A stretch of 64,000 nt of DNA from a virus (IMGVR_UViG_3300042261_001929:13902-77901), one strand, 5' to 3'. Counted from the stretch's first letter, positions 1 to 64,000 are shown. Translations and numbers: made by a program. The notes: generated from the letters alone by a model not told the origin.

Positions 1-1104
1 GTAGCCAGCTTCTTTCCCGCCAACCTTAACAATTATTCCGTCTCCAGTATCATGAAATGTGTTATTTCCATCTTTTTTGTACGCATCAATGCCATCAGCC
101 ATACCCTCAATGTCACCGGCATAAATTGCTGGCCTCTCGTCGTCTGATATTCTCTTTGTGTCTGCCTTTTCGATTACTTTTTCAATTCCTTTCTCTCTTA
201 CCTCATCTTCAGGCGTACATTTAAAAGACTCATCCACTGTGCCCCACTTACATTTACTATTCTCTTTTATTATGTTTGATTCAGCATTTAAAATCATTTC
301 ATATTTCTTGATCTGCCAAGGGTCAATCTTACCTTTTACCCGAACGCCCCCACCGTATACAATACTCTCCGCTACTGTATCTCCCACTTTAACACCGGTA
401 CCCCTCTGATTTGCTAATTGATCTTTATCAGCTAACATCTTACTAACAGGTACCAAAACTTCATAAACAGTTGATTTTCCGCCGTTGCCCAAATCTCCAA
501 AGCTTTTTGCTCTTTCTGGTGTATTTGCTAGATATACGTATCCTGATGTCGATTGATAGCTCCTTCTTCTGTTTTTTGAGGTTGGCAACAGACCCTCACC
601 CTCGATGTCCAATGTTGGTGATGTACCATGATAGAATTTCATATAGACTGGATTATATTTATCTTTGTTGGCATCAATAACAGCCTTTATTTCTTTTACC
701 TTTTCCATTGATGGTATACCCTCAACAAACGGGTTATTGATTACTTTGTTGGATGTTCTTTCTGTCCAATTAAAACCCTTGCTTGCGCTTGTTTTTGAAT
801 TGGCCTTGTCCCCCTCAAGGCCACACCTAAAAGATTCATCAACAGTACCCCACTTACATTTACTATTTTCTTTGATTTCTTCATCAGGTACTACGTATTC
901 CTCACCATATTCATTTTCCTCAAATGGCTCAAATTGAATGCCATTATCGCCATCATATACATCAATGTGATCAATTTTTCCCATTAAAATGTCATCGGGT
1001 ATCCCATTTGGAAATGCATCACAATGTAACTTATTTATTCCTGACTTGAACATTAAATTGTGTTTGCAATTCATACATGCCCAAGGCATCATAGGTACTG
1101 TCAT
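1..1104 (-). CDS. Modular cargo protein, truncated at the window edge: small Cys/His domain, tag, H-Y-clade (PARP/Tpt1-like) ADP-ribosyltransferase, tag, further domain
   Basis: Not in the ORF track; translated by hand. ATG at 1104 overlaps the upstream TAA (TAATG) and the frame is open to position 1. Contains CMNCKH..HCDAFPNGIPDDILMGKIDH..GDNGIQFE, then FYHGTS..EGLLP..GYVYLANTPERAKSFG..VYEV..VKGKIDPWQI, and two IKENSKCKWGTVDESF(R/K)C tags. Confidence 0.8.
   Translation of the reverse strand, partial: MTVPMMPWACMNCKHNLMFKSGINKLHCDAFPNGIPDDILMGKIDHIDVYDGDNGIQFEPFEENEYGEEYVVPDEEIKENSKCKWGTVDESFRCGLEGDKANSKTSASKGFNWTERTSNKVINNPFVEGIPSMEKVKEIKAVIDANKDKYNPVYMKFYHGTSPTLDIEGEGLLPTSKNRRRSYQSTSGYVYLANTPERAKSFGDLGNGGKSTVYEVLVPVSKMLADKDQLANQRGTGVKVGDTVAESIVYGGGVRVKGKIDPWQIKKYEMILNAESNIIKENSKCKWGTVDESFKCTPEDEVREKGIEKVIEKADTKRISDDERPAIYAGDIEGMADGIDAYKKDGNNTFHDTGDGIIVKVGGKEAGY
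217..876. repeat. Dispersed ~54-bp direct repeat (217-270 and 823-876) encoding the IKENSKCKWGTVDESFxC tag
   Basis: Shared core ccccacttacatttactatt; differences are almost all synonymous on the minus-strand frame. Confidence 0.85.
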
Positions 1105-4100
1105 TATTCTTTCCTCCTCAAAACGCGGTTAATAGCATCATATGCACTTGGTAATAAGTCCCTGTTAACTTCTTTGCCATTTGTCATCATACTAAACATT
1201 TCAGCCACACACTCATCCTCGTCAGTTATTGCATATGATGATATAGCGCGCTTAATGTTGTTTGAATTTGCATTGTATGCACCAAATGATTTATCGACAC
1301 TTTCTTTATCCAATTTTTTTTCCTTCCATTCTTTTCTAATTAAGGAATTTTCATCAGGTGTAAATAACTGATACTGAACAGCATGTCCGACTTCGTGACA
1401 GTAAGTACCCACCAACCCATCGATAGCACACCCCTTTATCTCATCTTTGCGCGATCTTCTTTTCACAACTCTTTCTAATGATGCGTTATAATGGAACGTA
1501 AGTTTTTTCGATGATGGATTATATGTTGCTAAATACGATCCTAGCTCAGAATCAGCCAGTGCAATTTCTGGTAAGTCGAGTTCTTTCAGGGCTGGGAACT
1601 CGTTAAGCATTCTCGATCTTTCTTTTCCTATAATATTTAATGTATCGAGACATACTTTTGGGTTACTAAGTGCCGATTCTTCTGTAATATTTATTTTTAG
1701 ACCCATTTCTTTTTCTGCATCAGAAACCTTGTTAAATTTTTTGTGCGACACTTCCATTTTTAAACGATCGCCATGCTCCTTGATAAAATCGGTTGCAGCA
1801 TATAGTTGCTCCATTTGGAGGGCCTGCCTGGCCCTGCCTTCGGATGTACCTGGGTCACTTTGATTTCTAACAATATTTTGTAAAACATCTCTATATGCAA
1901 TTCTTTGTGCTATTGACATTTCCTTAAGATCTTCGACAATAAGCGCCTTTTCGGCATTTGCTCGTTTCTCAATCGCAGCATCGCGTTTCTCATCAATGGC
2001 TTTCATCTGACTCATGATCTTCTTTTTCTCGCTTGATTTCAAATCGAGACTATAAGTTTTGTATATTTTGTCCCTCTCAGTGCTGAGCTTTTCGACTTCA
2101 TTTCGATGCTTTTCGACCTCTCTATCATCGAAAATATGATCACCTCGCACAAAATAGTCAAATCTCATTTTTTCAATTGGATCTGACCCAACACTTTCAT
2201 AAGTCTTAGATTCTTTTTCTGGTCGTGTTGTATCATTCAAAGCCTCTTTTTTGGTTCTTGGTAATAAACTAACATGATATAAAGTTCCACCGCCTTTTAT
2301 CTTTTCAATTTTTTCAAGCTTGAATGTAGAATTTGACGTGATCAGAATCTCAGATTCTCCACTTTTTTTACCAGCACTGAATCTTGTAATATCCATCGCA
2401 TTCGATCCCGCAGGTATATTAATTTTCATCATATAGGGTTTTTTCTCATACGAGGCAAATCGATCGCTAACGGATTTATCAGGCGAAGTTGAAACAAACC
2501 CCTTATACTCAAAATTATCGCCTTCTTTTGTACCTTTAATACACGAAAGAAAGTTTAACTTGGACTGCCCAGAAAGACCTCTCCAAACCGTTAAGTCGCT
2601 ATCGATTTTGTTATTTTCTATTATTCGATTGAGGTCAGTAATATCAGATCTTACTTCATTTAGCTGCTTTTCAGTAAACCCCATATAAACCCCATTCATA
2701 TAGTTATTTATAGATGTATATTTAAACCCAGAATAAGCACTTATGGTATCACGATCTTTTGCGCTTAACTTAACAGATTTGTTTGGTTTGTTTGTTATAA
2801 GATCGTTTTTACCCAAAACTTCCTTTAAATTGTCAACGCTCTCTTTAGATACTTTTCCTGATTCCTTTTCCACTTTGACCTGTTTAATGGCTTCAGAAAC
2901 CTTACTTACTTCTAAACTTTTTCCCTCTTTTTTGGCTTTCTTTGCTTCTCTTTTAAGTCTTCTCTCATTTTTCATATTTTTAGCAGCTTCTGCCTTTGTC
3001 TCGCCACAGGAAAAAGAATTCGGTACATATTTTCCTTCAGGACATTTATAATTTAGTTTTATTGTGTTCAAGCTTGATGAGAGAGACGTTTCAAATGCTG
3101 CTTGTATAACATTTTTTAAATTATTATCAATCATAACAGAGTTTAGCTTGGTTCTTGATAAAATCCTCTTAAGAGGAGCAACCATTTCAGGGTAAAAATC
3201 ATTATCAAATTCATGCCCATTCGTAGCCATTGAAAACATTTCAGAAAAGCATTCATCAGGGGTCTTTGTTGCATATTCAGAGACCTGTCCTTCAATCTTA
3301 TTATATAGATCGGAACCACCACCAAAGCTGTGAGAAACCCCTTTCCATGACGCATATATGGCATTTCGTTCCTCTTTGGTAGTTAATTGCTGAAGAGCTG
3401 CATGACCAACTTCGTGCCTATAAAGGTCAGACAGGCTTGTACCCGATAACTGTCTTACGCCGTATCTATCGTTTTTTGCCTTTGATCCCTTTGGTACTGC
3501 CGCATTCTTTCCTCTTGATGCTGAATTAGATAACAGCGTCATTGAATTATCAGAACTATCGAATTTTGCCGCCCCTCCATGTCTGCCTAGTGCCTCATCA
3601 TCAATCTTATATTCTGATATGTCAAGTTTTTTTAGCATCGGGAACTCATTATATATCCTTGCTCTTTCCTCAGACACCTTATTTAGTGTTTTCAATGATT
3701 CTGCCTTGCTTGCTTTTCCAACAATGGTAACTTTCGCACCAAGAATGTCAATAGCTTTATCAAAGTCTTTAAACTCTTCATGCTTCACTGGCAAGCTTTT
3801 GTTTTTGGTCTTGGATTCCTCTATTTTGTTCTCCAGCGCGTCCCTAGCATAACCATATGCAACAGAAAGCCTTTCATATTGTTTCATGCTGTTTTCATTT
3901 CTTGTGTCCAATTTAAATGTGCGGGTCTTCTCATCCAACACGTTAACGACTTTTGACAGATCAGCCTTAGACATAGATGCGAGAATTTTTGTCATCTTAT
4001 CAAAATCACCCTTTCCTCCCTTTCCGTTAATGATTTCCATCATACTAGATGATTTATCACTGGATATTTTCTTTTTGGTGCTGGCAGGCTTTTCTGCTTT

Positions 4101-4229
4101 TTGTTCTTTTTTACCCATTTCCTTTTCAAGACATTTTTCCGTACAACATAAAGAACCTTTAGCAACAGTTCCGTCCTTGCATCGGGCATTAAGTCTTATA
4201 ACATGAAACCTCTTCAATAAAAACACCAC
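1104..4229 (-). CDS. Polyvalent protein: tag, zincin metallopeptidase, tag, R-S-E ADP-ribosyltransferase (VIP2/Alt-like), second zincin metallopeptidase
   Basis: Two HEVGH..S.YA....ECx(S/A)EMF zincin motifs. ART motifs TVWRGL / GFVSTS / GESEILI. Cys tags at the N-terminus and internally. Confidence 0.85.
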   Translation of the reverse strand: MVFLLKRFHVIRLNARCKDGTVAKGSLCCTEKCLEKEMGKKEQKAEKPASTKKKISSDKSSSMMEIINGKGGKGDFDKMTKILASMSKADLSKVVNVLDEKTRTFKLDTRNENSMKQYERLSVAYGYARDALENKIEESKTKNKSLPVKHEEFKDFDKAIDILGAKVTIVGKASKAESLKTLNKVSEERARIYNEFPMLKKLDISEYKIDDEALGRHGGAAKFDSSDNSMTLLSNSASRGKNAAVPKGSKAKNDRYGVRQLSGTSLSDLYRHEVGHAALQQLTTKEERNAIYASWKGVSHSFGGGSDLYNKIEGQVSEYATKTPDECFSEMFSMATNGHEFDNDFYPEMVAPLKRILSRTKLNSVMIDNNLKNVIQAAFETSLSSSLNTIKLNYKCPEGKYVPNSFSCGETKAEAAKNMKNERRLKREAKKAKKEGKSLEVSKVSEAIKQVKVEKESGKVSKESVDNLKEVLGKNDLITNKPNKSVKLSAKDRDTISAYSGFKYTSINNYMNGVYMGFTEKQLNEVRSDITDLNRIIENNKIDSDLTVWRGLSGQSKLNFLSCIKGTKEGDNFEYKGFVSTSPDKSVSDRFASYEKKPYMMKINIPAGSNAMDITRFSAGKKSGESEILITSNSTFKLEKIEKIKGGGTLYHVSLLPRTKKEALNDTTRPEKESKTYESVGSDPIEKMRFDYFVRGDHIFDDREVEKHRNEVEKLSTERDKIYKTYSLDLKSSEKKKIMSQMKAIDEKRDAAIEKRANAEKALIVEDLKEMSIAQRIAYRDVLQNIVRNQSDPGTSEGRARQALQMEQLYAATDFIKEHGDRLKMEVSHKKFNKVSDAEKEMGLKINITEESALSNPKVCLDTLNIIGKERSRMLNEFPALKELDLPEIALADSELGSYLATYNPSSKKLTFHYNASLERVVKRRSRKDEIKGCAIDGLVGTYCHEVGHAVQYQLFTPDENSLIRKEWKEKKLDKESVDKSFGAYNANSNNIKRAISSYAITDEDECVAEMFSMMTNGKEVNRDLLPSAYDAINRVLRRKE

Positions 4230-21352: not shown

Positions 21353-22738
21353 CTACTCTTTCATCAGTCTTTCCCTTATCTCATCAAAGGTTATGGTCCT
21401 AACGATTTTGCCATTATCGAATACGGTTTCGAGTACATCCTCACCAACAGCATTCAGTGGCACGGTCTTGTATGTACCATCAACCTTGACGAGCTTCATC
21501 AAGCCTGCCTTAGACCTCTTTGCGCGGCTGGTAATTGGATCTTTGTATACATCTCTCCACTGACCATCCACCTTTGCAGCACAGCACTTAAAGGCGAACT
21601 GCATCGTATCCCGATTCAATTTCTGTAACAGCGCGCCGCCCATGCCAAACGCGATATTATCAATGCTCCAACCAGCGTGCTTCATGGCACCCAATATAGC
21701 ATTGATGAGATCCTTGTCTACACCATCACCTTGAATTAAGCGAACGTGCGGATCAAGCACCTTGTAACCCTTATCATTTACAGTGAAACCAAACTTTTCA
21801 CCCAAAGTTTCCAAGCAGGTCATCACAACTTCCAATGGGTTACCACTATCAGGACGAACCACGAGTGTGCCATTACGATTCATGACATCATTCTTCAACG
21901 CGCCGCCCCAGATGTCGCGGCATGCCGCGAATATATCCCATGTATCGGACACACAAGCAATTACACCATTCGGGTACTTCTGCAACATATTTCTCATTGC
22001 ATCGGTTTGGCCATCTCTGAGCCACGCGCTCATTGTGGAATGCTCAGACGCTGGAATAGAGAAGCCCGCCATCTTGGCACCATAGTATTCCCTTGCCATC
22101 CTAAGAGCCGTCATTGTATCCGTGCCTAAGAAGCTCAGCAGGTGAGCAGAACCACCGATAGCAGCGGACTCTACAGAGGAAACACCCCTAAAGCCGAAGT
22201 CATGCAGCTTGAATGGTACACCACCCTTATCGCCGGTCTCCTCAGCATACCAGTCCATGAGCCTTCTTATCTCATAGCTCTGAGTCGCTACCGTACATGG
22301 ATACCACAATTGTACAAGTATGGTCTCCAGCCAAGATGTCAGCCACGGAACTCTTGGATCAGTATTTTCGACAGTCATGAGCACATTCTGTACTGGAATC
22401 TTGGAACCTTCAGGTACCGCTCTGATCTGTACAGGGAGAGCACCATTATATTCATCTAAGATGTACTCCCAACCCTCGCGATTGAAGACACCCTGACCCA
22501 TATGAGCTGTGACTATTTCGTCACCCTCATCAATCTTCTTCTGAGTCACAGCCTTACCAGCAAGGTACTTCTCCAGAATATACTGGAGGCCATAGAACAC
22601 CGTGTAAGGTGCCCATCTACCACTTCTTGCCTCAAAATAAGAAGCAACGAACTGAGTACCCGCTGGATAAAGCGGTGCATGGGAATGCTTATAACTGTCG
22701 GTCAAGTCCAATACAAACTCGTTGTTTTCTTTCATCAT
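21353..22738 (-). CDS. nadV: Nicotinamide phosphoribosyltransferase (NAMPT)
   Basis: TDSYKHSH, LHDFGFRGVSS, SIPASEHS, CVSDTWD, RPDSG, LIQGDG, FGMGGALLQ. Confidence 0.95.
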   Translation of the reverse strand: MMKENNEFVLDLTDSYKHSHAPLYPAGTQFVASYFEARSGRWAPYTVFYGLQYILEKYLAGKAVTQKKIDEGDEIVTAHMGQGVFNREGWEYILDEYNGALPVQIRAVPEGSKIPVQNVLMTVENTDPRVPWLTSWLETILVQLWYPCTVATQSYEIRRLMDWYAEETGDKGGVPFKLHDFGFRGVSSVESAAIGGSAHLLSFLGTDTMTALRMAREYYGAKMAGFSIPASEHSTMSAWLRDGQTDAMRNMLQKYPNGVIACVSDTWDIFAACRDIWGGALKNDVMNRNGTLVVRPDSGNPLEVVMTCLETLGEKFGFTVNDKGYKVLDPHVRLIQGDGVDKDLINAILGAMKHAGWSIDNIAFGMGGALLQKLNRDTMQFAFKCCAAKVDGQWRDVYKDPITSRAKRSKAGLMKLVKVDGTYKTVPLNAVGEDVLETVFDNGKIVRTITFDEIRERLMKE

Positions 22739-26478: not shown

Positions 26479-27502
26479 TTAGTACCTCAACAGCGCACCG
26501 ATTCCACCAAAAATTTTCTCTAATTGAGCGCCTTCCTCAAAACCAGAGTCGATGTACTCTATTTTTGTACCATAGGCAACAGATTCGTTTTCTAATCCTT
26601 TATCTACATTTGATAACAAAAGCGTGTCAACTTTTCCATTTCTCAGCTCTTCCAAGACATTTTTCCCATAAGAAACGCGATCATCATTAGCTAGCCGTCT
26701 GAAAAACGTGCTCATAAGCTTCCTTTGTTTAACTAGCTCTGATTCAGCAAGCAACTCTCCAGCATTACCAATAGTCTCTTTAATGCCCTGAACACCAACA
26801 TAACCGGTATCAATAACACCAAGAATCTTCTTGCGCAGCTCGTGATGTAAGTATTCACCAAGATAAAACTCATTCTTAGTAAGTCCAGGACCACTGATTA
26901 TAATACCAGCAAGATCCTCATCCAAAAGAACTTTATCAATTTTTTCCGCAGAGGATTTATACCACGCGATGATAGCAAGATCCCTATTTTTATCAAATCT
27001 CCTTTGGGACTGTCCACCCCTATCTTGTTTTGATGGAACAATGCTATCTTCATGCAATTTGGTCTCTACATGAACACCTTGTAAAATCGCGAGGTCCATT
27101 TCGTGCAAATCAATGCATACAATAGCATATTTTACACCCTTGTCAATCATGCTATCAATTGGAGAAAAATCAAACTTGCTTCCGCATCGATAAATTATAC
27201 TCGATAATGGCTTTGGAACCTCAATAATTTCCGATATCCAACCATCAGATGTAGGCCCAACAAATATAACCACGTCTCCAGAGGCCATTTTTAGCCTCTC
27301 TAAGGCACTTTTTATTCCGGATGTAACAGAGTTCCTAGTGACCCTAGATTTTATGTTTGAAGCCTTACCAAGCTCATCTCTGAGCATCCCAGATGCTTCG
27401 GGAACCTTTCCATTAGGTACGTATAGGCTGATCAGTTCTGTGCCCGACCCCTTCAAATTTCGCAGTCCGTCAAAGACAGTATTTCTTAGTTTCTGATATC
27501 AT
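26479..27502 (-). CDS. prf1: Archaeal-type peptide chain release factor aRF1, probably needing a +1 frameshift at codon 10/11
   Basis: GTELISLY, ASNIKS, YRCGSKF, GGQS, FGGIGALLRY. RBS GAGGTG plus ATG at 27502 opens a frame that stops at CTT-TGA-C (27475-27469); the main frame is +1. Confidence 0.9.
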
Positions 27503-37141: not shown

Positions 37142-37570
37142 TTAAGCCTGTGCTCGACGGCTCGTGCTTAAACCTCTTCCCGCTTCAAGAATTGGCAACT
37201 GTGCTTCCGTTGGTACATATACAATTTCTTTGTCTGCATCAGTTCCGATCTTCTCTGTTATCCAGAGATAGTCCAAATACACTGAATTGTTCTTAAGAGA
37301 GTCACCTATAATTTGATTTGACTGTGCAACTCCTCTTGCCCTCGTTATTTCCGCCTGTGCTAAATAAGTTGCGCTTTCGTTTTTTGCATTTGCCTCAGTC
37401 ACAGCAATCATACGAGAGCTTTGGGCCTCTGCCAATCTTGCCTTTCCTGCTTGCTCAGACGACCATACGTTATACAATGGTAGTGCAATCGCGAGCGCAA
37501 CCAAGACGCCGATTACGACCGCGACCGTACCAATTATCATTCCCGTTGATACTTCACCATTTGTTTTCAT
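37142..37570 (-). CDS. Single-TM coiled-coil protein (SPFH-like C-terminus)
   Basis: TM, then GKARLAEA..RARGVAQSNQIIGDSL..YLW..IVYVPTEAQLPILEAGR. Confidence 0.65.
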   Translation of the reverse strand: MKTNGEVSTGMIIGTVAVVIGVLVALAIALPLYNVWSSEQAGKARLAEAQSSRMIAVTEANAKNESATYLAQAEITRARGVAQSNQIIGDSLKNNSVYLDYLWITEKIGTDADKEIVYVPTEAQLPILEAGRGLSTSRRAQA

Positions 37571-39749
37571 CTATATCGCTTTCCTTTTCCAAATACTTGT
37601 TACCCAACAATTTTATCACGGAATCAATATGTATGCTCAATAGTGCTTCGCGCACACCTACGGATTCACCTGATCTCATCTTGAATAATATTGGACTATA
37701 TTTATACTTTACTGCTTTTAAAGCGAACTCTTTCTGATCATCGATATCACATATTCCCTTGTATGTTTCCTCGATTTCACGTACAAGTGACTCATACACA
37801 CATTTTGCATATTCAAACTTGTCAATAAACATCGGGAAATATGCTAACAGTTCATCGCTTTCGTTTCTCCGTACTACATCCATTATTTTTCTTGGTGTGA
37901 TGCCATTTTTCAAATGGTGTAGGGCCACGTATTTAGGGGCCTTTAACTTTACCCTGTTGAAGTCCTTGTCCCTTATAACAAAACCTTCATACTTTGCGGG
38001 GTCGAGCTTTGCACATGCCTCTACAACCTCGTCTAGGGTGCCTAAATCGAAGGATCTTACGATATCCCAATCATATTGAAGCCCGATCTCTGGATCGACT
38101 TCTTTGAGGGTTTTAAGGCTTCTGACACCATGCAATACCAGCTTTGGATCATCATATGATACCACGATCTGATTTAGGGGTGTACACATCTCAAACATGT
38201 AGGTATATCCTTCTTCAGGCAATTTATACCCCATTTTGGTAAATAGTTTCCAGAACATATGGCTAAATGTGTCCTTTCCCATTGGTGTCATACTAGCCAT
38301 ACCATCGGGAGTACCCGATGTTCCTGCATACCATATTCCATCGTAATTATATAACTGCATCATTGAATTATGTACAAATATTCCATTTGCCATATAGTTC
38401 CCTGTCGTTGTTTGTATATCATATCCCACCCTTCCTGCCGGAAATTCTTTTTTGGTCAGTTTGGGATAAGATATACTGTTCACTTCTATTTTTATGGGTA
38501 CATATTCTTCCTTTCTACTTAATGTATCCATGATATATGGCACGTTTTGAAACCCCTTTGGTAACTTATAACGCAACCCATGTGGTATATATGGAGATAT
38601 AGACTCCCAGAATCTATTTATTTCTCCACAACGTCCTGAATTTATTCGAATGTTCCACCCTTTCGATTGATATACAGTAACATCAACTGAAAATGTTTTC
38701 CTAAGATGATCTGCCAATCTATTGACATCATTTTCAGCAAACCCATTTGTCGCAAATAAGGCACGATCCGCCTGTTTGCTATTATGAGCTAAACTCCCAT
38801 CATCCATGTACCACTTCGCGAATGAAAATGCATCCATCCAATCAATATTAGATGGTATGCACTTTTTTCTTCCATTTGGGTACCACTCATCTCTTAACGT
38901 TTTTAATATCCGATATGTCTTTGAAGTAATTTGGGTTATATCAGAACCATATCCAGATATGATCTTTCGTGAACTGAGATATGAATCACCCAAGTATTGT
39001 TTTGCCATATCCTCGAAATCGGGATATTTTGATAAGTGCCCCTCTTGAAATTTACAGTTTGTACCATTATAAATTATGCTTCCATCACCGAGCAGCGATG
39101 ATCGTATATAATGCATAGCTGCCTTGTGTGGTGACAACAACACAGATGTTAATATATCGTCTGTTTGGATATTACTTGCTAATTTGTAGCATCCGTTATT
39201 ATAAATTTCATGATTTGTTGTGACCCGAAGTCTCTTAGATGACATATTTTTATGTGGTCCGGGTCTGTCTTTTAAATTGATGTCTACCCAATTTGTTCTT
39301 CCCTTAGACTTTGACCTTCCAATAACATATGTTGGTACGGGATTTCCGTTAGAGTCAATACCAATTAGCTTCGGAGACAGTGATTTGTTAACGATGTCAC
39401 CAATTTTAACTATGCCACCATCCCATAAATTCAATGACGTGTCGTAATAAAAACAACCATCAAGCTTTTCTAATATGCTCGCGGTACTCCAGTCTATAGG
39501 AGCAGCATGTCCCTCATGCACATTGAAGAATTTCTTATAAGGATAAGATATTACTCTCCAATCCTTATCGCGATCCAATATGATCCCTCTACATTCTTGT
39601 ACTAAAGGATCGCCCAATGGTGAATCGATTTGACCATACTTAAATGAAATCAAATTCGGATGAGAGGTATGGGATCTGGATTTTATTCCATACTTAATCC
39701 CCAGATCTCCAATAGAACCAGACCGCAAAAATTCTTGAATTTTCAACAT
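37554..39749 (-). CDS. rnl1: T4 Rnl1-like RNA ligase with a LAGLIDADG intein
   Basis: ECRGIIL..KFFN..EKLDG|intein|SMM..FEM..EGFV..RVKLK. Confidence 0.85.
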   Translation of the reverse strand: MLKIQEFLRSGSIGDLGIKYGIKSRSHTSHPNLISFKYGQIDSPLGDPLVQECRGIILDRDKDWRVISYPYKKFFNVHEGHAAPIDWSTASILEKLDGCFYYDTSLNLWDGGIVKIGDIVNKSLSPKLIGIDSNGNPVPTYVIGRSKSKGRTNWVDINLKDRPGPHKNMSSKRLRVTTNHEIYNNGCYKLASNIQTDDILTSVLLSPHKAAMHYIRSSLLGDGSIIYNGTNCKFQEGHLSKYPDFEDMAKQYLGDSYLSSRKIISGYGSDITQITSKTYRILKTLRDEWYPNGRKKCIPSNIDWMDAFSFAKWYMDDGSLAHNSKQADRALFATNGFAENDVNRLADHLRKTFSVDVTVYQSKGWNIRINSGRCGEINRFWESISPYIPHGLRYKLPKGFQNVPYIMDTLSRKEEYVPIKIEVNSISYPKLTKKEFPAGRVGYDIQTTTGNYMANGIFVHNSMMQLYNYDGIWYAGTSGTPDGMASMTPMGKDTFSHMFWKLFTKMGYKLPEEGYTYMFEMCTPLNQIVVSYDDPKLVLHGVRSLKTLKEVDPEIGLQYDWDIVRSFDLGTLDEVVEACAKLDPAKYEGFVIRDKDFNRVKLKAPKYVALHHLKNGITPRKIMDVVRRNESDELLAYFPMFIDKFEYAKCVYESLVREIEETYKGICDIDDQKEFALKAVKYKYSPILFKMRSGESVGVREALLSIHIDSVIKLLGNKYLEKESDIDENKW
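38367..39455 (-). mobile_element. Intein (363 aa) with a LAGLIDADG homing endonuclease
   Basis: Begins CFYYDT right after KLDG; block B VTTNHEI; SLLGDGS and WYMDDGS; ends FVHN followed by S. Confidence 0.9.
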
Positions 39750-45948: not shown

Positions 45949-46023
45949 CGGATCTGAAGGGATTTGAACCCCTGACCTATTGGTTCGTAGCCAATTGCTC
46001 TATCCAGACTGAGCCACAGATCC
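45949..46023 (-). tRNA. tRNA-Arg(ACG); A34
   Basis: GGATCTG/CAGATCC-G; ATTGG CT ACG AA CCAAT. Confidence 0.9.
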
Positions 46024-46276: not shown

Positions 46277-47089
46277 TTACTCATACCTCTTGTTATACAT
46301 CCTTCTGACGACATCAAAGGTTTTTTGATACGCCGGTAGCCTGAAATACCCTTCAGCAAGGCACGCATGATAAATATCGTATATATGCTCTGGTGTCAAT
46401 CTTTCAAGCTCTTCTTCCAGTGTATCTGGATCGCTGCCCAATAACATTTTCATCGGGCGAATGATTATATGGGCCTCGTTGCTCACAATGAAATCCACAT
46501 ATTCATGGACATTTCGTATGCCCGCAAAATTAATTCTCGATTCAATTGCAGCATTCAGCCCCCCGTATTTCCCATAGTAAACAAAGAACGCATCATTTTT
46601 GATGCCCCTTTGCTTCATGATATCGATTAATTTGCGTTCGTGCGTGCCTGTGATATTAACGTCATCAACAAAGATGAGAAGCTTTCCTTCTAAGAACTCT
46701 ATGTTCATGTAGAAGTCATCGTTATTTATCAAAGCCTCGCGCTTTTCCTTGTTCAAGAATCCATAATCGTTAATATAAGACACTTTCCTGTGGATTGTAT
46801 CGTATTCCACTGGAGATCCATTTTCATGAACCAGTTGCTCATTTAACCGGTTCACAAAGTACTTTGTCATTATGGTTGCCGCGTTTGGTACATGGTTGTA
46901 CGGTGATGGAATCACTACCACCCGATTAGCAAGCAGCACGGCCATATGCTTCATAAAGAAGGCATCCGCCAACCTCTTCCCGAACTCCTTCGCGATTTCA
47001 ACACTCCCGAATTTCAGCATAGAATATTCTCTTGGTTGAAACCCAAACCCCTCGTCACCAAAATGATGTAAAGCAAAGCTCTCATGCAT
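46277..47089 (-). CDS. ComF-like phosphoribosyltransferase
   Basis: YSMLKFGS..PSPY..PNAA..LIFVDDVNITGTHE (PRPP-binding loop). Confidence 0.75.
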   Translation of the reverse strand: MHESFALHHFGDEGFGFQPREYSMLKFGSVEIAKEFGKRLADAFFMKHMAVLLANRVVVIPSPYNHVPNAATIMTKYFVNRLNEQLVHENGSPVEYDTIHRKVSYINDYGFLNKEKREALINNDDFYMNIEFLEGKLLIFVDDVNITGTHERKLIDIMKQRGIKNDAFFVYYGKYGGLNAAIESRINFAGIRNVHEYVDFIVSNEAHIIIRPMKMLLGSDPDTLEEELERLTPEHIYDIYHACLAEGYFRLPAYQKTFDVVRRMYNKRYE

Positions 47090-47795: not shown

Positions 47796-48442
47796 CTACA
47801 ATCGTATTGTAAACGCTGCATATTTCCAGCTATTTATAATTTCGTCTGGTTTTAAAAACCTTGGAGCAAGATCTTTTGGGTATACAACTAATCCCCAGCT
47901 ATCGGTGTTCCAATATTTTTCGGACAGGCACCTAACGACCATCCATCTTGTCATGTCCTCAGCCGTAACATCTCCCATCAATACAATGTTTCGATCGCGA
48001 TAATTGGGCACTTCTTCCCAAGTCCCGTCCTTCCGAGGAATTATTCGGTTACCGTTCTCACTTGATCTTATCGTAAAGTCATCACCAATTACCTTCTCTT
48101 TAGTCCTAAGCTTGATTCGCGAATTTAAACGCTCTATCTGCTCATATGAGAACTTGGGCTTCTTCTGAGGGAATAACCCGTTTAAAAGATTCAATATCAT
48201 ATTGGTTCGCCCTCCGAGGTGTAATCATAATCATATACATCTTCTGAGTCGAGACGGTTTACTATCTCTTGGTAAGATTCGCGCGATATAATACTTCGTT
48301 CTACAAGGCTATCCAAGAGATCCCCCAAAAGCGCCTTCCCTTCCCAAGCACTCTCAGGATATCTCCCATAAAGTTTATCATACTCTACGCAAAATTTTAC
48401 AATGTCATCCAACTTTATAAGAATATCAGTCATTACTATCAA
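47796..48442 (-). CDS. Two hypothetical genes (47796-48200, 48197-48442)
   Basis: Coupled ORFs. Confidence 0.5.
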
Positions 48443-49145
48443 CCAGCTTTATCTTCCCATCTTCAATAATCACATACCGGAACCTGTCTCCACCAAATCC
48501 CTCTTTAGAATACGGGTCAATGACATAAAAATTTTCCAATTTTCCTACGCTCTTCTCAATCCATGCCGGAGGAGTGTGCCCAACAACCTGAACTATGCTT
48601 TTGTACGGCAAGTCGTCAGGCTTTGGCCTATACCACAGTGGGCTATTGTCCTCCCACAAGTCCCTTAACTTCCTCGTGTTTAGGTAATGGGCTAAGCAAG
48701 TTGACGTGCTAGGAAAATCCTCTGTATAAAGATGACTATTAATCATTTTAATAAGTGGATCTATGTTTTGGAAATAGTAATCAGTTGATATTCCAGCATG
48801 TGTTATCAATATGTTATGGACCTTATGTTTCGGAAATTCATCAACGTGGGCAGCCATCGTAAACATGGAGCTTATTGAAACTATTTTATCTCTCGTTTCG
48901 GTATCATATACATTTTGCGGCCAAATTGCCTTGTTCAACGGCACCGCTGCATCATGATTTCCCCACAAAAGTTCTGCTTCATTTTTGATAAGTAATGCAA
49001 TGCATTCGAGGCCCTGATCTCCCACATCGATGATATCACCGGCATGTATTAACCGGTCAACCCCGATCTCATAACCAGAGTCCTTTAGTGCATTTTTAAT
49101 TAAATGTGGTTGTCCATGACAATCACTTATTACAAGAGTTCTCAT
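48426..49145 (-). CDS. Calcineurin-like metallophosphoesterase
   Basis: SDCHG, GDIIDVG, GNHD, HAG, VGHT. Confidence 0.9.
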   Translation of the reverse strand: MRTLVISDCHGQPHLIKNALKDSGYEIGVDRLIHAGDIIDVGDQGLECIALLIKNEAELLWGNHDAAVPLNKAIWPQNVYDTETRDKIVSISSMFTMAAHVDEFPKHKVHNILITHAGISTDYYFQNIDPLIKMINSHLYTEDFPSTSTCLAHYLNTRKLRDLWEDNSPLWYRPKPDDLPYKSIVQVVGHTPPAWIEKSVGKLENFYVIDPYSKEGFGGDRFRYVIIEDGKIKLVDSND

Positions 49146-49633: not shown

Positions 49634-49710
49634 CGGATCTGGGGGGATTTGAACCCCCGAAATGGCGGGTTAAAAGCCCGCTGGACTCGGCCTGGCTATC
49701 CAACAGATCC
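49634..49710 (-). tRNA. tRNA-Lys(UUU)
   Basis: GGATCTG/CAGATCC-G; GCGGG CT TTT AA CCCGC. Confidence 0.88.
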
Positions 49711-50258: not shown

Positions 50259-51191
50259 TCACTCTTCAAAATGCCTAGCCAATTCATAATACATCATCAG
50301 GTGTTCTTCTACTACTATATAGCGATACTTTTCCATTTCTCTTACAGGAATAAGTATGATATCATCAGCATCGTCACCCGCACGCGGTTCACCTATTGCA
50401 TCAGCTACAAAGAACATGGTCATTACCATGTCGGATTTGTACCGCCAATCATTCACAAAGAATGAACCAAGATATCGAATTGTATCGTCTTTTGCCTCAA
50501 GATCAGCTTCCTCCTTGCATTCCTTAGCGGCCTGTACTTCTGCAAACTTATTTTTGTATTGACCTTTTCGATCAGGTTCAATATGACCACCGATAAATCT
50601 GATCTTACCATTGTCAGAGTCCTTTTTGATCATTACGAGCGTCGCAGCGCCTTCATGATATATGATTGGTGCTATATCAACGGTAGGAACCACCCGCACA
50701 TACTGATTTTGCGTGGCCCAAATTGCACCCCTTCTAAAGTTTTCACTGCCATCATCAGGGTTGCATGCTACCTGCTTTCTTTGAGATGTACCTGATTGGG
50801 AATTCATCTGTTGGGAGAACTCCTCAACTTGATATTTACCAAAGTAGTGAGGCAAGAAGCTATCCCTACCACCATACAGTTTGACTTTAGATCCTGGAGG
50901 AATATTTTTCGCTATCATTCGATCAAGTTCTTTCGACCATTCCACATCATCTCTTCGATCCATTATGGAGAGGACAACCACTTTTGGGAACCTATATTTT
51001 ATCATGTTCCGCCTCATCTCGATACTTAATGGGTCTGTATGATTTGGTCGTACTGGAGACTCACCTAAAACGACAATTACCCCATCGTTTTCAGCCATCA
51101 TGTACTTGATTAGCTCCTCATGTCCAACCGTTAGTGACGAGACCTGACATCTCATCACCGCAACACCAACGTTAGATCTTAACATAGCCAT
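50259..51191 (-). CDS. nadM: Bifunctional NMN adenylyltransferase / Nudix hydrolase (NadM-Nudix type)
   Basis: VMRCQ..LTVGH..DPLSIEMR..LYGGRDSF..SGT..R; Nudix box GGHIE..AAKECKEEADL..AGDDA. Confidence 0.85.
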   Translation of the reverse strand: MAMLRSNVGVAVMRCQVSSLTVGHEELIKYMMAENDGVIVVLGESPVRPNHTDPLSIEMRRNMIKYRFPKVVVLSIMDRRDDVEWSKELDRMIAKNIPPGSKVKLYGGRDSFLPHYFGKYQVEEFSQQMNSQSGTSQRKQVACNPDDGSENFRRGAIWATQNQYVRVVPTVDIAPIIYHEGAATLVMIKKDSDNGKIRFIGGHIEPDRKGQYKNKFAEVQAAKECKEEADLEAKDDTIRYLGSFFVNDWRYKSDMVMTMFFVADAIGEPRAGDDADDIILIPVREMEKYRYIVVEEHLMMYYELARHFEE

Positions 51192-51617: not shown

Positions 51618-52163
51618 TTATCGCTCTTCGTATATTAACTTTTCGACCCAATCATGTTCATAACTTTGAGCATAATTTACTAACCATTCATATCTAAATT
51701 TCATTTCGCGAGCATCCCATAAAGCATGGTGTTCTATCTTCTTTTCGAGTACAGGCAACCTCGGATTTCCCAAACTGTGAGCCAACTGTTTGATATCGAG
51801 GCAATACATTGGGAAACCTCTTGGAAGATCTATCATTCGACCAAAGAGCCCACAGAACACAACCCAATCATAATCAGAATAGTAGCCCCAAAATTCGATA
51901 TCATCCGAATATCCAGAAACACCTTTTGACACAAAATTCAAAACATCATTTTTTATCTGTGCGCGAGTCTTTGCATTCGAGTAGTCAAGATGCCTAATAA
52001 CATTTTCAAATATCCAAGGGTCTGCATTCACAAAGCTGACTTCCTTTTTATCTACAACGGCATAATATTCTCTGTTATCCTCAGCCACGATTCCTATACT
52101 AAGCAACTCAATGGGTGCCTCAGACCCACGTTCTATAAATTCAGTATCCAAAAAATATTTCAT
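51618..52163 (-). CDS. DEDD 3'-5' exoribonuclease (Rv2179c/DUF5051-like)
   Basis: YFLDTEF..SIGIVAED.REYYA..YDWV..HHALWDAR. Confidence 0.85.
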   Translation of the reverse strand: MKYFLDTEFIERGSEAPIELLSIGIVAEDNREYYAVVDKKEVSFVNADPWIFENVIRHLDYSNAKTRAQIKNDVLNFVSKGVSGYSDDIEFWGYYSDYDWVVFCGLFGRMIDLPRGFPMYCLDIKQLAHSLGNPRLPVLEKKIEHHALWDAREMKFRYEWLVNYAQSYEHDWVEKLIYEER

Positions 52164-52164
52164 G

Positions 52165-53715
52165 CTAATCCACTTCCTGAAATGCATCTTTAAATGTCTC
52201 TCTTCCTATGTGCCATTGGCGATTGAATTGATCCGTTAGTATATAATCTCCTTCATACACTAACGAGCTAGTAGATCGCGAAGCAAACGATCCCTTTCCA
52301 TCATAGTAAGGTAACCAAAGAGAATTTGATGGTCCGTTATATTGTGACGCGGTAAATACCAATTCAATTGCTTTGTATTTCGGGATTTTTGTCATACTTC
52401 CACCGTGCAACTATCGCCCCATTTGGTTGTCTTTTTTCCTAATCGGCAATGTCCACTGTGGTCGAAATCGCACATGTCGAGCCAATGCCTACAGGTACCA
52501 CAAACCTCAGACTGAGTTATTGCCTTATATCCTTTTACCATGCTTTTGTGGTTGTCATTATCCCATTTAAGTGTTTTGTTCTCATCGTATAATCCGTATA
52601 ATGCTAAGTATACAGCCCCACCATCTTCCCTGTAGACTCGATCAAATGTATATAGCATAACGATTTTGTCTCTTTCTAGATCAGCTATCCAATGTAGAAC
52701 TTGAAATTCGTTATCAGCATCTAGCCTTTTACACAACGATGGAATGCTTTGTGGTGACTTTTCGATGAGGGAGAGGATGATCTTATCTTTTCCTATCTCG
52801 TCTTTGATTTTGCTACCGAGAAACCCTTTAAACATTCGCCTCTTCCTTCTTTTTTGCTTTCCACTCAGCCATTTCTTTCTCTTCTTCTATCTTATGCTTT
52901 TCAATCAAAACCTTGATCGAGTCCTTGATGTCTTGTGGAATTGCCGCCGTTAATTCGCGAAGGTCGTCACCGCGTTGTGATTCCCAAGAAGTTTCATCAG
53001 TAATACCTGGCCATCCAAAGCAATACCACTCACTCTTATATTTTACTTCCTTAAATCCTACTGCTAGCATTTCCTCAAGTACATAGTCATGAATCTCTTC
53101 ATACGAAACTCCATCGTCATGAACATAAACATCATACTTACCATCTATGATGCCCCTAAAAACCCGTATAATCGCATTAAACACGATTTCTTTGAACTCC
53201 GCACCTGAGTACTCAATCTCATGAAGAACCTCGCTAAAACGGCTATCTTCATAAGATCCATAACCAAACTTATATAAAAACATTTATATTTACCTACCTA
53301 ATATATGTTCCTTTGTATTGAGAAATGCCTCTTTGATTTCTGTAAAGTCGAGGTACCTTACGGCAATTGGTTTATCCTTCTCTACTATGATATTAGTATA
53401 ATACGAAGTCAATTGTCTTCCTGTTAGCTCTGATGCCCTTGTCATATGATCATAAAGAAAGGGTGATACGGCCCCATCCCATTGATCAACGATTACCAAT
53501 TTCGGAGTACATTCGCTGCTAAATATATTACCTTCAAAACTTATTTTCTCCTTTATCTTGAAGTACCAAAAGGCAATTTGATTGCAATTTGAACATATTA
53601 GCACGCCAGAATTGACTCCTTGTATACGCTTTTGGTGATTATCTTGCTCAAATGCAATGTCCTCGGACCCACACCATCCACATTTACACTTAATTACTTC
53701 TTTTGTCATCAGCAA
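52165..53715 (-). CDS. Four hypothetical genes (52165-52410, 52392-52835 wHTH-like, 52828-53283, 53290-53715 Zn-ribbon)
   Basis: Closely packed co-oriented ORFs. Confidence 0.5.
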
Positions 53716-57736: not shown

Positions 57737-57814
57737 TGGCGGATCTGGCGAGATTTGAACTCGCGATGGCTGGATTAAGAGTCCAGTGATTTATCCTGAC
57801 TAACCAACAGATCC
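57737..57814 (-). tRNA. tRNA-Lys(CUU), CCA encoded
   Basis: GGATCTG/CAGATCC-GCCA; CTGGA CT CTT AA TCCAG. Confidence 0.9.
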
Positions 57815-61407: not shown

Positions 61408-62255
61408 TCAGAGTGCTTCTCCTTCCCATGATATGAGCTGACGACCACCGGTATAATATCCGCTATAAACTTCCCTCTCTTTGAAGACTTTGATAGAGCG
61501 AGCACCATCAAGTTCTATCTTCACGATAGGAGAATCTGGGAAGTCATACTTTTTGAATCCATGACGCATCAGTTCTATTTCGATTCCCATCAAGGCAACA
61601 TCCATTATTCATCCCTCATACCACATGTCCTACATCGAAACTATTTAAACCTTTCTAACGAACTTTAATTTTTTATAGGAGTTCTTACAATCCCTCTTGT
61701 TGTCTGTATCTAAACAAGTCTCTTAGATCTACGGTTTTAGCATATCCAACAATAGCTTCCACCCAATCCTCAAAACTGTTAACTGTTTTGTCGAAGTATG
61801 TGGCACCGTACCATCTATACGTATCATGACCTTCGAATGGAAACCAAGAGCTTGCGGTATCATCCCCTTTGCATCCTTGAATGAACTCCATATTGACGGA
61901 ATTTATTACAATCCATGCTCGGAAGTCCCATCCTATGACATCCGTATCCACTTCACAAACATCAACCGTTACTTCCTTTATTGCCCCGCGTGGCATTTCT
62001 AATTTAACGGTATAAGTAGACTCATTCATGATACAATCATCCTCCAAACTACTGCTTTCTATCAACGAACACTGTTGTAATTTTCCGCTTTGTTTGTACA
62101 ACAACATCGCCAGTGTATCCGCGCAATGTGATTTTTACCGATGCCTTTCCGCACCGCTTTATTCCCAATACTTCGCGCGAACATGCATGAAAGGGAGGCT
62201 CTTCATACAGAAAGTCTCCGACTTTCACATTTGTAGCCGTAGTTTTAATCGACAT
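61408..62255 (-). CDS. Small hypothetical genes (61408-61605, 61685-62029, 62049-62255)
   Basis: Similar promoters (GAAAGGTTTAAATAG near 61645, AAAGGATTAAATAG near 62280) precede the first and third ORFs. Confidence 0.5.
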
Positions 62256-62297
62256 ATCAAGTACTATACATTGAAACTATTTAATCCTTTTGGTTCA

Positions 62298-62371
62298 TGG
62301 AGCGGGCCAGATTTGAACTGGCGACAATCCGATCTTCAGTCGGACGAACTCCCAAGCTGTTCTACCGCTCC
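62298..62371 (-). tRNA. tRNA-Phe(GAA)
   Basis: GGAGCGG/CCGCTCC-A; TCCGA CT GAA GA TCGGA. Confidence 0.92.
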
Positions 62372-62400
62372 CCATCATTATATATTTCTACGTAAATTTT

Positions 62401-62840
62401 ATTGGGGAAGTGAGAGGATTTTGAGCATAAAAATTCCCCAATTGCTCATGCCTCTCTCGCTTTCTTGGTACACGTATAATCAATCGGACCCGCCATTCAT
62501 ATACGCTTAACATGGGTAGCTTGAACCCAATGCGCGGGCGAGATTCGAACTCGCTCGTCTTGCGGACTTAAGCCAAAGGTTTACTACAACCCACGTAGTT
62601 AAGGGGAGTCGGACCCCACACCCTCGCGCATCCGAACACCTTTTATAGTGTTCTTTTCCCCGAATTTCGACATCGGGAACACCGCGCTTCGCGAAAGAAC
62701 GTGCGCAAATGGCTATCATCGGGTTTCTCACAATAGCTAGTTATGAGGTTACCGACTCTCCTTCCATCCCACTTGTCGGGATCATGTCATTCTATTGCAC
62801 ATTAGGCATGCCGGATTTGAACCGGTTACCCTTTCATGCC
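62401..62840 (-). ncRNA. Candidate large structured ncRNA region with several T-loop hairpins
   Basis: Multibranch domain at 62527-62713, minihelix at 62804-62840, pseudoknot at 62401-62456. Confidence 0.6.
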
Positions 62841-62862
62841 TTTTTCTAATATTGCCTCTCGA

Positions 62863-63111
62863 TTATCTCCAACCATAGTTATACATTGGCAAATAACTAT
62901 GCCAGAATGTAGTAGCGAACCCTAACCCCGAATTTCTCATCCAGTTCATTGCTCCGTAGGACGCTGAATAATGGGTACCATAACCCCATCCTCCGTACTG
63001 TGAGTATGCACCATAATCCGATCCAAAGTACTGAGCCTGCGCTGAACCGATGCCAACGACCATGATTGCGATTAAAATCATAGCCCCCATTATGATATAT
63101 CTTGTCCTCAA
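62863..63111 (-). CDS. Small secreted Gly/Tyr-rich peptide
   Basis: GGTGA plus TTG at 63111 (or ATG 63090); signal peptide ending AQA; mature QYFGSDYGAY... Confidence 0.55.
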   Translation of the reverse strand: MRTRYIIMGAMILIAIMVVGIGSAQAQYFGSDYGAYSQYGGWGYGTHYSASYGAMNWMRNSGLGFATTFWHSYLPMYNYGWR

Positions 63112-63140
63112 TCTGATCACCCGATTACTGGTTAAAAATT

Positions 63141-63269
63141 TGGGCAAGGGAGATTTGAACTCCTCGCAAATTATGCTTTTCCTCATCGCGAGCCTAAGAG
63201 AACTTAATCCCGTTCTCGCCATTACCCAACTTCTGGAGGTGTCATGACTGACACAACTTCTTTGCACCC
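63141..63269 (-). ncRNA. tRNA mimic (acceptor and T-arm, non-tRNA core)
   Basis: GGAG TTCAAAT CTCC CTTGCCC-A; 5' GGGTGCAA; internal hairpins GTGTCA/TGACAC and GAGAAC/GTTCTC. Confidence 0.5.
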
Positions 63270-63270
63270 T

Positions 63271-63401
63271 GCACCACTCACTATCGATTTTCGGTCAGTG
63301 AGAACCGATGCTCCGCACCACTCACTATCGGTTTTTGGTTAGTGAGAACCAAGCCGCTATCCGCCGCGCCACCAAACATATTCGAAGGCGTTTGGAACCT
63401 T
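63271..63401 (-). repeat. Three tandem structural repeats with pseudoknot potential
   Basis: Units at 63271-63308 and 63315-63352 (near-identical) and 63366-63401 (same pairing, different sequence). Confidence 0.75.
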
Positions 63402-63436
63402 ATCCTCCCGAACATACATACTATCAAACGCCATAG

Positions 63437-63452
63437 TACTTAAGACTTTCGG
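63437..63452 (-). promoter_or_regulatory. BRE/TATA promoter upstream of the repeat RNA
   Basis: CCGAAAGTCTTAAGTA, nearly identical to the tRNA-Ser(GCU) promoter. Confidence 0.6.
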
Positions 63453-63460
63453 GAGGAAAT

Positions 63461-63580
63461 CGCACCTCTAGGAGTCGGACCTAGTTCTACAGCATTATTC
63501 GAAAATATCTACGTTTGCCACCGCAAATATTTTATGCTGTCACATGAAGCCGTATCACACTCCACTTTTTGTGATAGCGC
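63461..63580 (-). ncRNA. Second tRNA-mimic candidate
   Basis: CTAGG TCCGACT CCTAG AGGTGC-G; hairpins TATCAC/GTGATA and ACAGCAT/ATGCTGT. Confidence 0.45.
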
Positions 63581-63938
63581 ACATGCTGAGGCACAACACA
63601 ATTCGGTTAGCCAATGGGTCTATATGGTTATCCATCCCACATGGGTGGCGTGGGTCAGACCACATATAATTTCAATGTGCGTTATTTCCCCATTTGTTTC
63701 CTTCACGTATGCATTAACCTTTCGGTCGAATTGTAAATGAGGTGTGGACGTTACGAACGCCTTACCCATCACGTATTGTGATGGTGATTTTAAGTCTCAT
63801 AAATCTAACACCTCGACACATTAAAGAATATTCCTTAATGTGCGTTTCCACTATATCCAACCGTCACATATGGTGCTGAGCACCTGCTTCTGGTTCGACT
63901 GTTGGAAAACTACCGCTCTGACCTCGCGCGAAGGTCGA

Positions 63939-64000
63939 TTGGCGTAGCCGGATTCGAACCGGCTGTCATCCCCTTATAAGGAGGGCGCATTTACCTCTTA
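63939..64000 (-). tRNA. tRNA-Ile(UAU), 5' part outside the window
   Basis: CCCTC CT TAT AA GGGGA; GCCGG TTCGAAT CCGGC. Confidence 0.7.

Follow-up and report, generated by a model that had tools for sequence, protein, structure and literature searches.

What kind of RNA is encoded by a short tandem array of pseudoknots in a viral tRNA island, and what might the constant tail of its units bind? The array considered here lies on the minus strand, close to the end of a 64,000-nt stretch of viral DNA, which we refer to as the window. Our best explanation, to which we assign a probability of roughly 60% as a whole, is that the array is a divergent three-unit relative of the wcaG RNA motif (Rfam RF01761), a non-coding RNA of modular construction that would serve as a trans-acting platform. 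The wcaG motif was described as an orphan riboswitch candidate from marine metagenomes and T4-like marine cyanophages (Weinberg et al. 2010, PMC2864571). The initial annotation of the locus had missed this link, namely that the repeated unit is the building block of the described motif.

Pseudoknot units and the predicted transcript

Read on the minus strand, the locus contains what the initial annotation had reported, small pseudoknots in tandem whose stems covary between units (Table 1). From 5′ to 3′, a unit comprises the 5′ strand of stem 1 (S1), NNGG(U), a linker of one or two U, the 6-nt 5′ strand of stem 2 (S2) with an initial C, 0-2 nt, the 3′ strand of S1, a loop 3 (L3) of 7-8 nt, the 3′ strand of S2 and finally UGGYGC. 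At the level of sequence, this layout confirms the reported pseudoknots, each of the classical H-type. The two elements said to be constant, GGTTC and TGGYGC (GGUUC and UGGYGC in RNA), are invariant across units 1, 2 and 3 (U1, U2 and U3). U2 and U3, separated by a spacer of 6 nt, are 92% identical over 36 nt and differ in S1 by a compensatory change (U-A to C-G), and U1 differs from both of them in either stem.

Table 1. Features of the array and its surroundings, in coordinates of the window.
Feature	Coordinates	Strand	Sequence and remarks
10-bp perfect inverted repeat	63457-63448 and 63412-63403	minus	brackets the promoter; upstream arm overlaps the BRE
BRE/TATA-like promoter	63450-63437	minus	CGAAAG-U-CUUAAGUA; TATA element 63444-63437; 36 nt before U1
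Predicted transcription start	63415-63413	minus	22-24 nt past the TATA element, by analogy with the motif's other occurrences; some 13 nt ahead of U1
Unit 1 (U1)	63401-63366	minus	AAGG(U)-U-CCAAAC-G-CCUU-CGAAUAU-GUUUGG-UGGCGC; S1 AAGG(U)/(G)CCUU; S2 CCAAAC/GUUUGG; L3 CGAAUAU; tail UGGCGC
U1-U2 spacer	63365-63353	minus	GGCGGAUAGCGGC; 13 nt; at the position of the wcaG P2 hairpin; hairpin of 3 bp at most
Unit 2 (U2)	63352-63315	minus	UUGGU-U-CUCACU-A-ACCAA-AAACCGAU-AGUGAG-UGGUGC; S1 UUGGU/ACCAA; S2 CUCACU/AGUGAG; L3 AAACCGAU; tail UGGUGC(GGAG)
Unit 3 (U3)	63308-63271	minus	UCGGU-U-CUCACU-G-ACCGA-AAAUCGAU-AGUGAG-UGGUGC; S1 UCGGU/ACCGA; S2 CUCACU/AGUGAG; L3 AAAUCGAU; tail UGGUGC(AGGGUGC)
Hairpin	63254-63239	minus	GUGUCA-GUCA-UGACAC; between array and tRNA-like element; similar in cyanophage wcaG
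tRNA-like element	63229-63139	minus	43 nt after U3; called by ARAGORN at relaxed thresholds only
U5 run	63138-63134	minus	directly after the tRNA-like element; candidate archaeal terminator

A structural search of the 64-kb window, on either strand, returned U1-U3 as the sole candidates to combine an S1 of 5-6 bp, an S2 of 6 bp and UGGYG, bar an AU-rich one at 39457-39415 whose loops are much longer; in the remaining candidates S1 has only 3-4 bp. The nested minimum-free-energy fold of the array region is unremarkable (z = -1.96), as expected for such structures because they are pseudoknots, and shuffling of the loops gave weak p-values for S1 in single units (0.02-0.16). Pair counts taken from a MAFFT alignment were abandoned, as differences in loop length shift the register of stem 1, and a partner-swap test was used instead on 39 distinct units, consisting of U1-U3, cyanophage units and a unit from a metagenome contig (L282, described below). 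With its own loop, S1 forms 3.62 Watson-Crick pairs, against 2.06 +/- 0.15 with swapped loops. The observed pairing was attained in 0 of 2000 swaps, and S1 is thus specific to its own unit.

The initial annotation had also placed a BRE/TATA box about 35 nt upstream. Judged from its sequence, such a promoter is present at very nearly that distance and belongs to a recurring motif, AAAR-N(0-3)-HTTAARTA, of which the minus strand holds at least eight copies where 1.8 are expected in shuffles (the copies, AAAG-N-YTTAAATA, lie at about 63449, 62291, 61654, 49969, 46059, 44370, 43792 and 9892). In four copies the TATA element stands 22-24 nt ahead of the mature 5′ end of a tRNA or of an ATG (ATGs at 62255 and about 49932), which suggests that some starts may be leaderless. 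A spacing of 22-24 nt fits archaeal BRE/TATA promoters and leaderless transcripts. The inverted repeat that brackets the promoter is expected in RNA solely where transcription reads through from upstream, because its upstream arm precedes the predicted start.

RNA libraries provide a view of the locus in the environment. A 167-nt contig from a wastewater metatranscriptome covers 63400-63187 and skips 63318-63368, which is exactly one unit; the deletion arose by recombination between UGG tails and left an intact two-unit array. This shows that unit number is polymorphic, with a two-unit allele in circulation. As to transcription of the array, the contig is a weak hint, its depth being about 4, its ends uninformative and carry-over of DNA possible. 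Runs that contain the stretch come from freshwater, lake and wastewater samples, and DNA contigs are identical across the array. A second short contig of the same RNA library covers 63697-63958, just downstream of a truncated tRNA at the end of the window, and this interval may hold another structured RNA.

Taken from promoter to U5 run, the transcript would be a non-coding RNA of about 280 nt, starting near 63414, passing through three modules, a hairpin and a tRNA-like element, and ending near 63136. In each module S1 (4-6 bp, with a GG end) and S2 (6 bp, C-initial) would stack into one quasi-continuous helix, with the A-rich loop 3 crossing stem 1 and the UGGYG(C) tail leaving the end of S2 as a 3′ overhang. 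The element that follows is predicted to be tRNA-like, not a canonical tRNA: its acceptor stem (UGGGUAA/UUGCCCA) and T arm (GGAG-UUCAAAU-CUCC) accompany a long D-like stem of 6 bp and a 20-nt ‘anticodon’ loop that starts with the C-box-like GAUGAGGA. It has no Rfam tRNA match at E≤10 and receives no call from ARAGORN at default settings. Its 5′ end, UGGGUAA-(U)-GGCG, occurs again at about 63770. No ORF is positioned for regulation by the array, what lies downstream being the tRNA-like element and then the U5 run.

Relationship to the wcaG RNA motif

Among 4227 Rfam families, wcaG is the sole notable match to the array (22.3 bits, 63262-63354 on the minus strand, spanning U2 and U3), with an E value of 0.23 in a 2-kb search against all 4227 families and of 0.034 in the 291-nt region. 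The score is well under the wcaG gathering cut-off of 42 bits, so that the array falls below the family threshold, and canonical cyanophage copies score 58-93 bits (eight of 79 loci re-checked with Rfam). Comparison with the Rfam wcaG alignment finds the conserved letters in agreement, with GUUYC before each hairpin and GUGGUGCGGA after it. The published alignment further contains a pseudoknot in the 3′ half (SS_cons_1), in which bases before UUUC pair with the hairpin loop (PMC2864571). That annotated pseudoknot is the stem 1 of the initial annotation.

We took 79 canonical wcaG loci from IMG/VR and scanned them for this architecture. The same pseudoknot module was found in both halves of wcaG. 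Cyanophage units follow the order S1, U-rich linker, 6-bp S2 nearly always with an initial C, A-rich L3 and UGGYG, and their stem 1 is diverse yet complementary (GAG/CUC, UAGG/CCUA, UGG/CCA, CGAG/CUCG, UCGG/CCGA, GACCC/GGGUC, AAUGG/CCAUU). The S2 of U2 and U3, CUCACU/AGUGAG, is also that of three canonical loci (L141, L146 and L199).

Set against these loci, the array shares the tandem modules of a hairpin (S2) followed directly by UGGYG, of which wcaG has at least two and the array three, as well as the 6-bp C-initial S2, the A-rich loop 3 and the pseudoknot itself, in which the bases adjacent to the linker pair with the hairpin loop (AAGG/CCUU, UUGGU/ACCAA and UCGGU/ACCGA). It also has GUGGUGCGGA behind an inner unit, and it belongs to a cluster of viral tRNA genes, whose strand it shares, with a hairpin and a tRNA-like gene to follow, where wcaG has a hairpin and a tRNA gene. 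The differences are several. Two units are modelled in wcaG against three here, the linker is UUU in wcaG and U or UU in the array, and S1 mostly has 3-4 bp in wcaG as opposed to 5-6 bp. Unlike wcaG, the array keeps L3 at 7-8 nt in all units and has its own BRE/TATA promoter. Where wcaG carries a P2 hairpin between its units and GUGGCGAGCC as the last tail, the array has no clear P2 hairpin and its last tail is UGGUGCAGGG (UGGUGCAG versus UGGCGAGCC). Finally, wcaG belongs to T4-like marine cyanophages and marine metagenomes, whereas the array stems from freshwater, lake and wastewater runs and from a virus that is probably archaeal, with BRE/TATA promoters and an aRF1 homologue.

An independent model allowed us to assess the similarity of single units. 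R1, a one-unit covariance model, was built from 43 cyanophage units only, with only stem 2 represented as pairs. Searched against both strands of the window (128 kb), it placed U2 first (17.9 bits, E 0.023) and U1 second (16.3 bits, E 0.059), and the next match had 10.5 bits; U3 obtained only 5.6 bits because its tail lacks GG. As a control, 919 kb of unrelated viral DNA, picked for carrying the tail motif, contained one match of 16 bits or more. We consider a chance origin of the resemblance very unlikely, since the two top matches are adjacent, lie on the right strand and each possess a stem 1 that the model does not include.

A module of the same kind also turned up in a metagenome. The single match there, contig Ga0222753_1002976 (L282), is a GC-rich array of tRNA genes that includes a tmRNA-like gene at 320-742 (Rfam tmRNA, 43.9 bits, E 2.5e-16), in which both tRNA-like halves align, G3:U70 is present and the tag frame ends in ...ALALA*. 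Past the tag stop, at 515-556, lies a near-copy of U3 (GGUUCUCACUGACC...AUAGUGAGUGGUGCA) whose S1 is changed yet complementary (CGGG/CCUG). Flanked by the tag reading frame on one side and the 3′ tRNA-like half on the other, this module sits where a structural pseudoknot like PK2-PK4 of tmRNAs is expected. A hairpin followed by UGGUGG at 610-638 resembles the upstream module of cyanophage arrays.

The possibility that the array is itself part of a tmRNA was rejected. The window has no tmRNA by ARAGORN (default) and no match to such a family in Rfam at E≤10 in 62000-64000; cyanophage wcaG loci have no tmRNA either; and 21 ordinary tmRNAs (20 from a sample of the cyanobacterial phylum, one from a Bacillus MAG) hold no UGGYG-type unit with both stems in such geometry. 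Archaea are not known to possess tmRNA. Since ordinary tmRNAs are without the module, it would seem to be a mobile component of phage tRNA-island RNAs rather than a general feature of tmRNA.

The tRNA island, the host and the search for relatives

Location in a tRNA cluster, on the tRNA strand, is a trait of the wcaG family that was found in this analysis and lies outside the Rfam definition; the array conforms to it. A tRNA gene is present in 69 of the 79 fetched cyanophage loci, always with the nearest one on the strand of wcaG, and in 28 loci there is a tRNA 32-58 nt downstream, past a hairpin. The annotated wcaG of cyanophage S-CREM1 lies within a tRNA array, beside manA and abiF RNAs. In the window, at least 22 tRNA genes are encoded on the minus strand, the same strand as the array.

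Several further observations concern these arrays. Orphan abiF RNA motifs (RF03085) share cyanophage tRNA arrays with wcaG in three loci (L120, L124 and L157), and in L120 the abiF RNA is also near a manA RNA. Inspection of L141, L144, L189 and L199 showed a second module that lacks a separate UGGCG tail and passes straight into a tRNA-Leu with UGGCG at positions 8-12; for L146, L182 and L194 the locus scan reported the same overlap with tRNA-Leu. This overlap hints that module tails and tRNA 5′ regions are related. Within the window, tRNA-Arg(ACG) at 45949-46023, tRNA-Lys(UUU) at 49634-49710 and tRNA-Lys(CUU) at 57740-57814, all on the minus strand, have an identical acceptor stem, GGAUCUG/CAGAUCC, together with G73, and among these three CCA is encoded only in tRNA-Lys(CUU).

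We consider it likely that the virus infects an archaeon, given the recurring BRE/TATA motif, the leaderless-looking starts and a three-domain homologue of aRF1/eRF1 (325 aa, 26479-27456, minus strand). The nearest named cellular relatives of this protein are archaeal aRF-1 from Halobacteriota methanogens and their relatives (35-43% identity), and short relatives of metagenome source, one of them on an IMG/VR viral contig, are 51-62% identical. For the terminase large subunit (TerL), a Methanomicrobiales virus gave the best match in the phage collection. Relatives of TerL are found on contigs of bacterial MAGs as well, and an archaeal host is thus likely, not proven.

Our IMG/VR searches found no close viral relative with the array. 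A pattern search of IMG/VR for the exact unit returned nothing, a loose tandem pattern returned glycine-rich coding repeats only, and neither a neighbouring 140-aa ORF nor the aRF1 homologue by itself, used as query, led to an array-bearing relative. TerL relatives are at most 53% identical, and R1 produced only weak, short matches on five whole records. One relative that carries aRF1 (76.6 kb, 54% complete) had no unit, its sole R1 match lying in coding DNA, and the phage collection contained no DNA match to the stretch.

Elsewhere on the minus strand, the virus encodes a set of genes related to RNA repair and NAD (37554-39749, 21353-22738, 46277-47089, 48426-49145, 50259-51191, 51618-52187 and 1104-4229). 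The set includes a T4 Rnl1-like RNA ligase with a LAGLIDADG insert, a NAMPT, a ComF-like PRTase, a metallophosphoesterase, a weak Nudix match, an Rv2179c-like 3′-5′ exoribonuclease and a 1041-aa protein with an ADP-ribosyltransferase domain. The eight ORFs that neighbour the array gave no toxin or defence match above a trace and no informative family.

Possible partners of the UGGYG tails

The RNA that we propose would be a multivalent platform, working in trans or inside a tRNA-type transcript, and its UGGYG tails would bind a partner that bacteria and archaea have in common. Since bacterial viruses and, probably, archaeal ones use the same module, its partner should be universal. Our favoured candidate is the single-stranded RCCA 3′ end of mature tRNAs together with C72, and the next is a conserved RNA-binding protein. 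UGGYG is the exact complement of C72-R73-CCA, and the acceptor end of a tRNA could stack on the overhang of the pseudoknot helix. Among the tRNAs of the virus, 16 of 22 have a purine discriminator (8 G73 and 8 A73), and CCA is encoded by one gene only. With respect to this virus's own tRNAs, the UGGC of the U1 tail matches CGCCA ends, and the UGGU of the U2 and U3 tails matches up to 7 nt of both tRNA-Gly ends. This agreement fits the proposal, but is a suggestive coincidence and not a test, because it involves only 4-5 bp and follows largely from the consensus of tRNA ends.

In T-box RNAs, a UGGN element beside a helix end pairs with the NCCA end of tRNA. The array likewise presents a UGGN-type element beside a helix end, which makes the T-box a working analogy only: the array lacks a Stem I and a specifier, has neither terminator nor expression platform and gives no Rfam match to that class. 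That wcaG-type modules are viral trans-acting binders of uncharged tRNA 3′ ends, with UGGYG pairing to C72-R73-C74-C75-A76 and stacking on the helix, is put forward as a tentative suggestion, more of a working guess than an expectation.

A protein partner is also possible, though in our estimate hardly probable. Here the UGGYG beside the helix end would be recognised by an RNA-binding protein, viral or from the host, that forms dimers or oligomers, and the array would titrate or recruit this protein as a sponge or assembly platform. A protein sponge and a ligand-binding array were two of the readings in the initial annotation, and both correspond to ideas that the wcaG authors had put forward. 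The authors of wcaG noted its two conserved UGGYG and proposed a dimeric-protein site for the duplicated element (PMC2864571). Variation in the number of units, 2-3 here and at least two in cyanophage loci, would suit a multivalent binder, as would an RNA with its own predicted promoter and no ORF to regulate. No protein was identified, however, as common to cyanophages or cyanobacteria and an archaeal-type virus or host, the neighbouring ORFs offer no informative family, and the conservation of a 5-nt site across domains favours a universal partner.

The modules could instead be elements of RNA processing or stability, a reading we regard as improbable. Their stacked helix of 11-12 bp with a 3′ overhang would mimic an acceptor/T minihelix and direct or block RNase P, RNase Z or an exonuclease, thereby protecting or punctuating the tRNA or tRNA-like RNA with which they are co-transcribed. 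Their position is what such a role would lead one to expect, always on the tRNA strand, with a hairpin and a tRNA next in the 28 cyanophage loci and a tRNA-like element next here, and a unit near-identical to U3 occupies the place of a structural pseudoknot in the tmRNA-like gene. Such a role leaves the strict conservation of UGGYG, and of Y at its position 4, without explanation, and most tRNAs of the virus lack a module of this kind.

Quite improbable, too, is that the pseudoknots are tandem riboswitch aptamers, each binding a small universal metabolite and controlling downstream expression in cis. The riboswitch reading is the one under which wcaG was originally listed, as a candidate (PMC2864571). 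Against it, no expression platform is visible in the array, where the downstream sequence is a tRNA-like element and a U5 run instead of an ORF, and canonical wcaG RNAs are found within tRNA arrays, in many cases with a tRNA immediately downstream. Known aptamers do include small H-type pseudoknots with an A-rich loop 3, such as preQ1-I, a pseudoknot of roughly 34 nt with GGUUC at the boundary of stem 1 and loop 1. The array units resemble preQ1-I in all these features, again as a working analogy only; their junction loops (L1/L2) of only 0-2 nt would hardly accommodate a ligand pocket where the stems meet and are too short for a preQ1-like one, and the 291-nt search found no match to preQ1 or another aptamer family at E≤10.

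The initial annotation had proposed, among others, a mimic of type III toxin-antitoxin antitoxins, whose repeats would be cut to monomers and neutralise a ToxN-, CptN- or TenpN-like RNase of the host; this is the least supported of the alternatives and very improbable, for although the array resembles ToxI, CptI and TenpI in its tandem, phage-encodable pseudoknot units (about 36-45 nt, with the units here put at about 37-50 nt), U2 and U3 are close in sequence and cyanophage tRNA arrays with wcaG also carry orphan abiF RNAs, antitoxin repeats are near-identical where U1 departs from U2 and U3 in both stems and the halves of canonical wcaG differ mutually, the constant element is a 3′ tail in place of a cleavage site, no ToxI-type Rfam family matches at E≤10, and the eight neighbouring ORFs include no toxin or defence gene.

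Since its description in 2010, wcaG has remained an orphan riboswitch candidate, and it had been regarded as limited to marine cyanophages. Its divergent yet recognisable counterpart in a virus that is probably archaeal, with its own archaeal-type promoter and among tRNA genes, argues against a regulation specific to cyanobacteria (exopolysaccharide or high-light genes), and it narrows the partner to something that bacteria and archaea share. Both halves of wcaG are then seen to be the same pseudoknot module, present in variable number. If the modules do bind tRNA ends, they would be a free-standing, multivalent counterpart of the T-box discriminator, whose effect during infection could be to shield tRNA ends, to sense them or to sequester them, and the universality of the RCCA end would allow one module to serve viruses of both bacteria and archaea.
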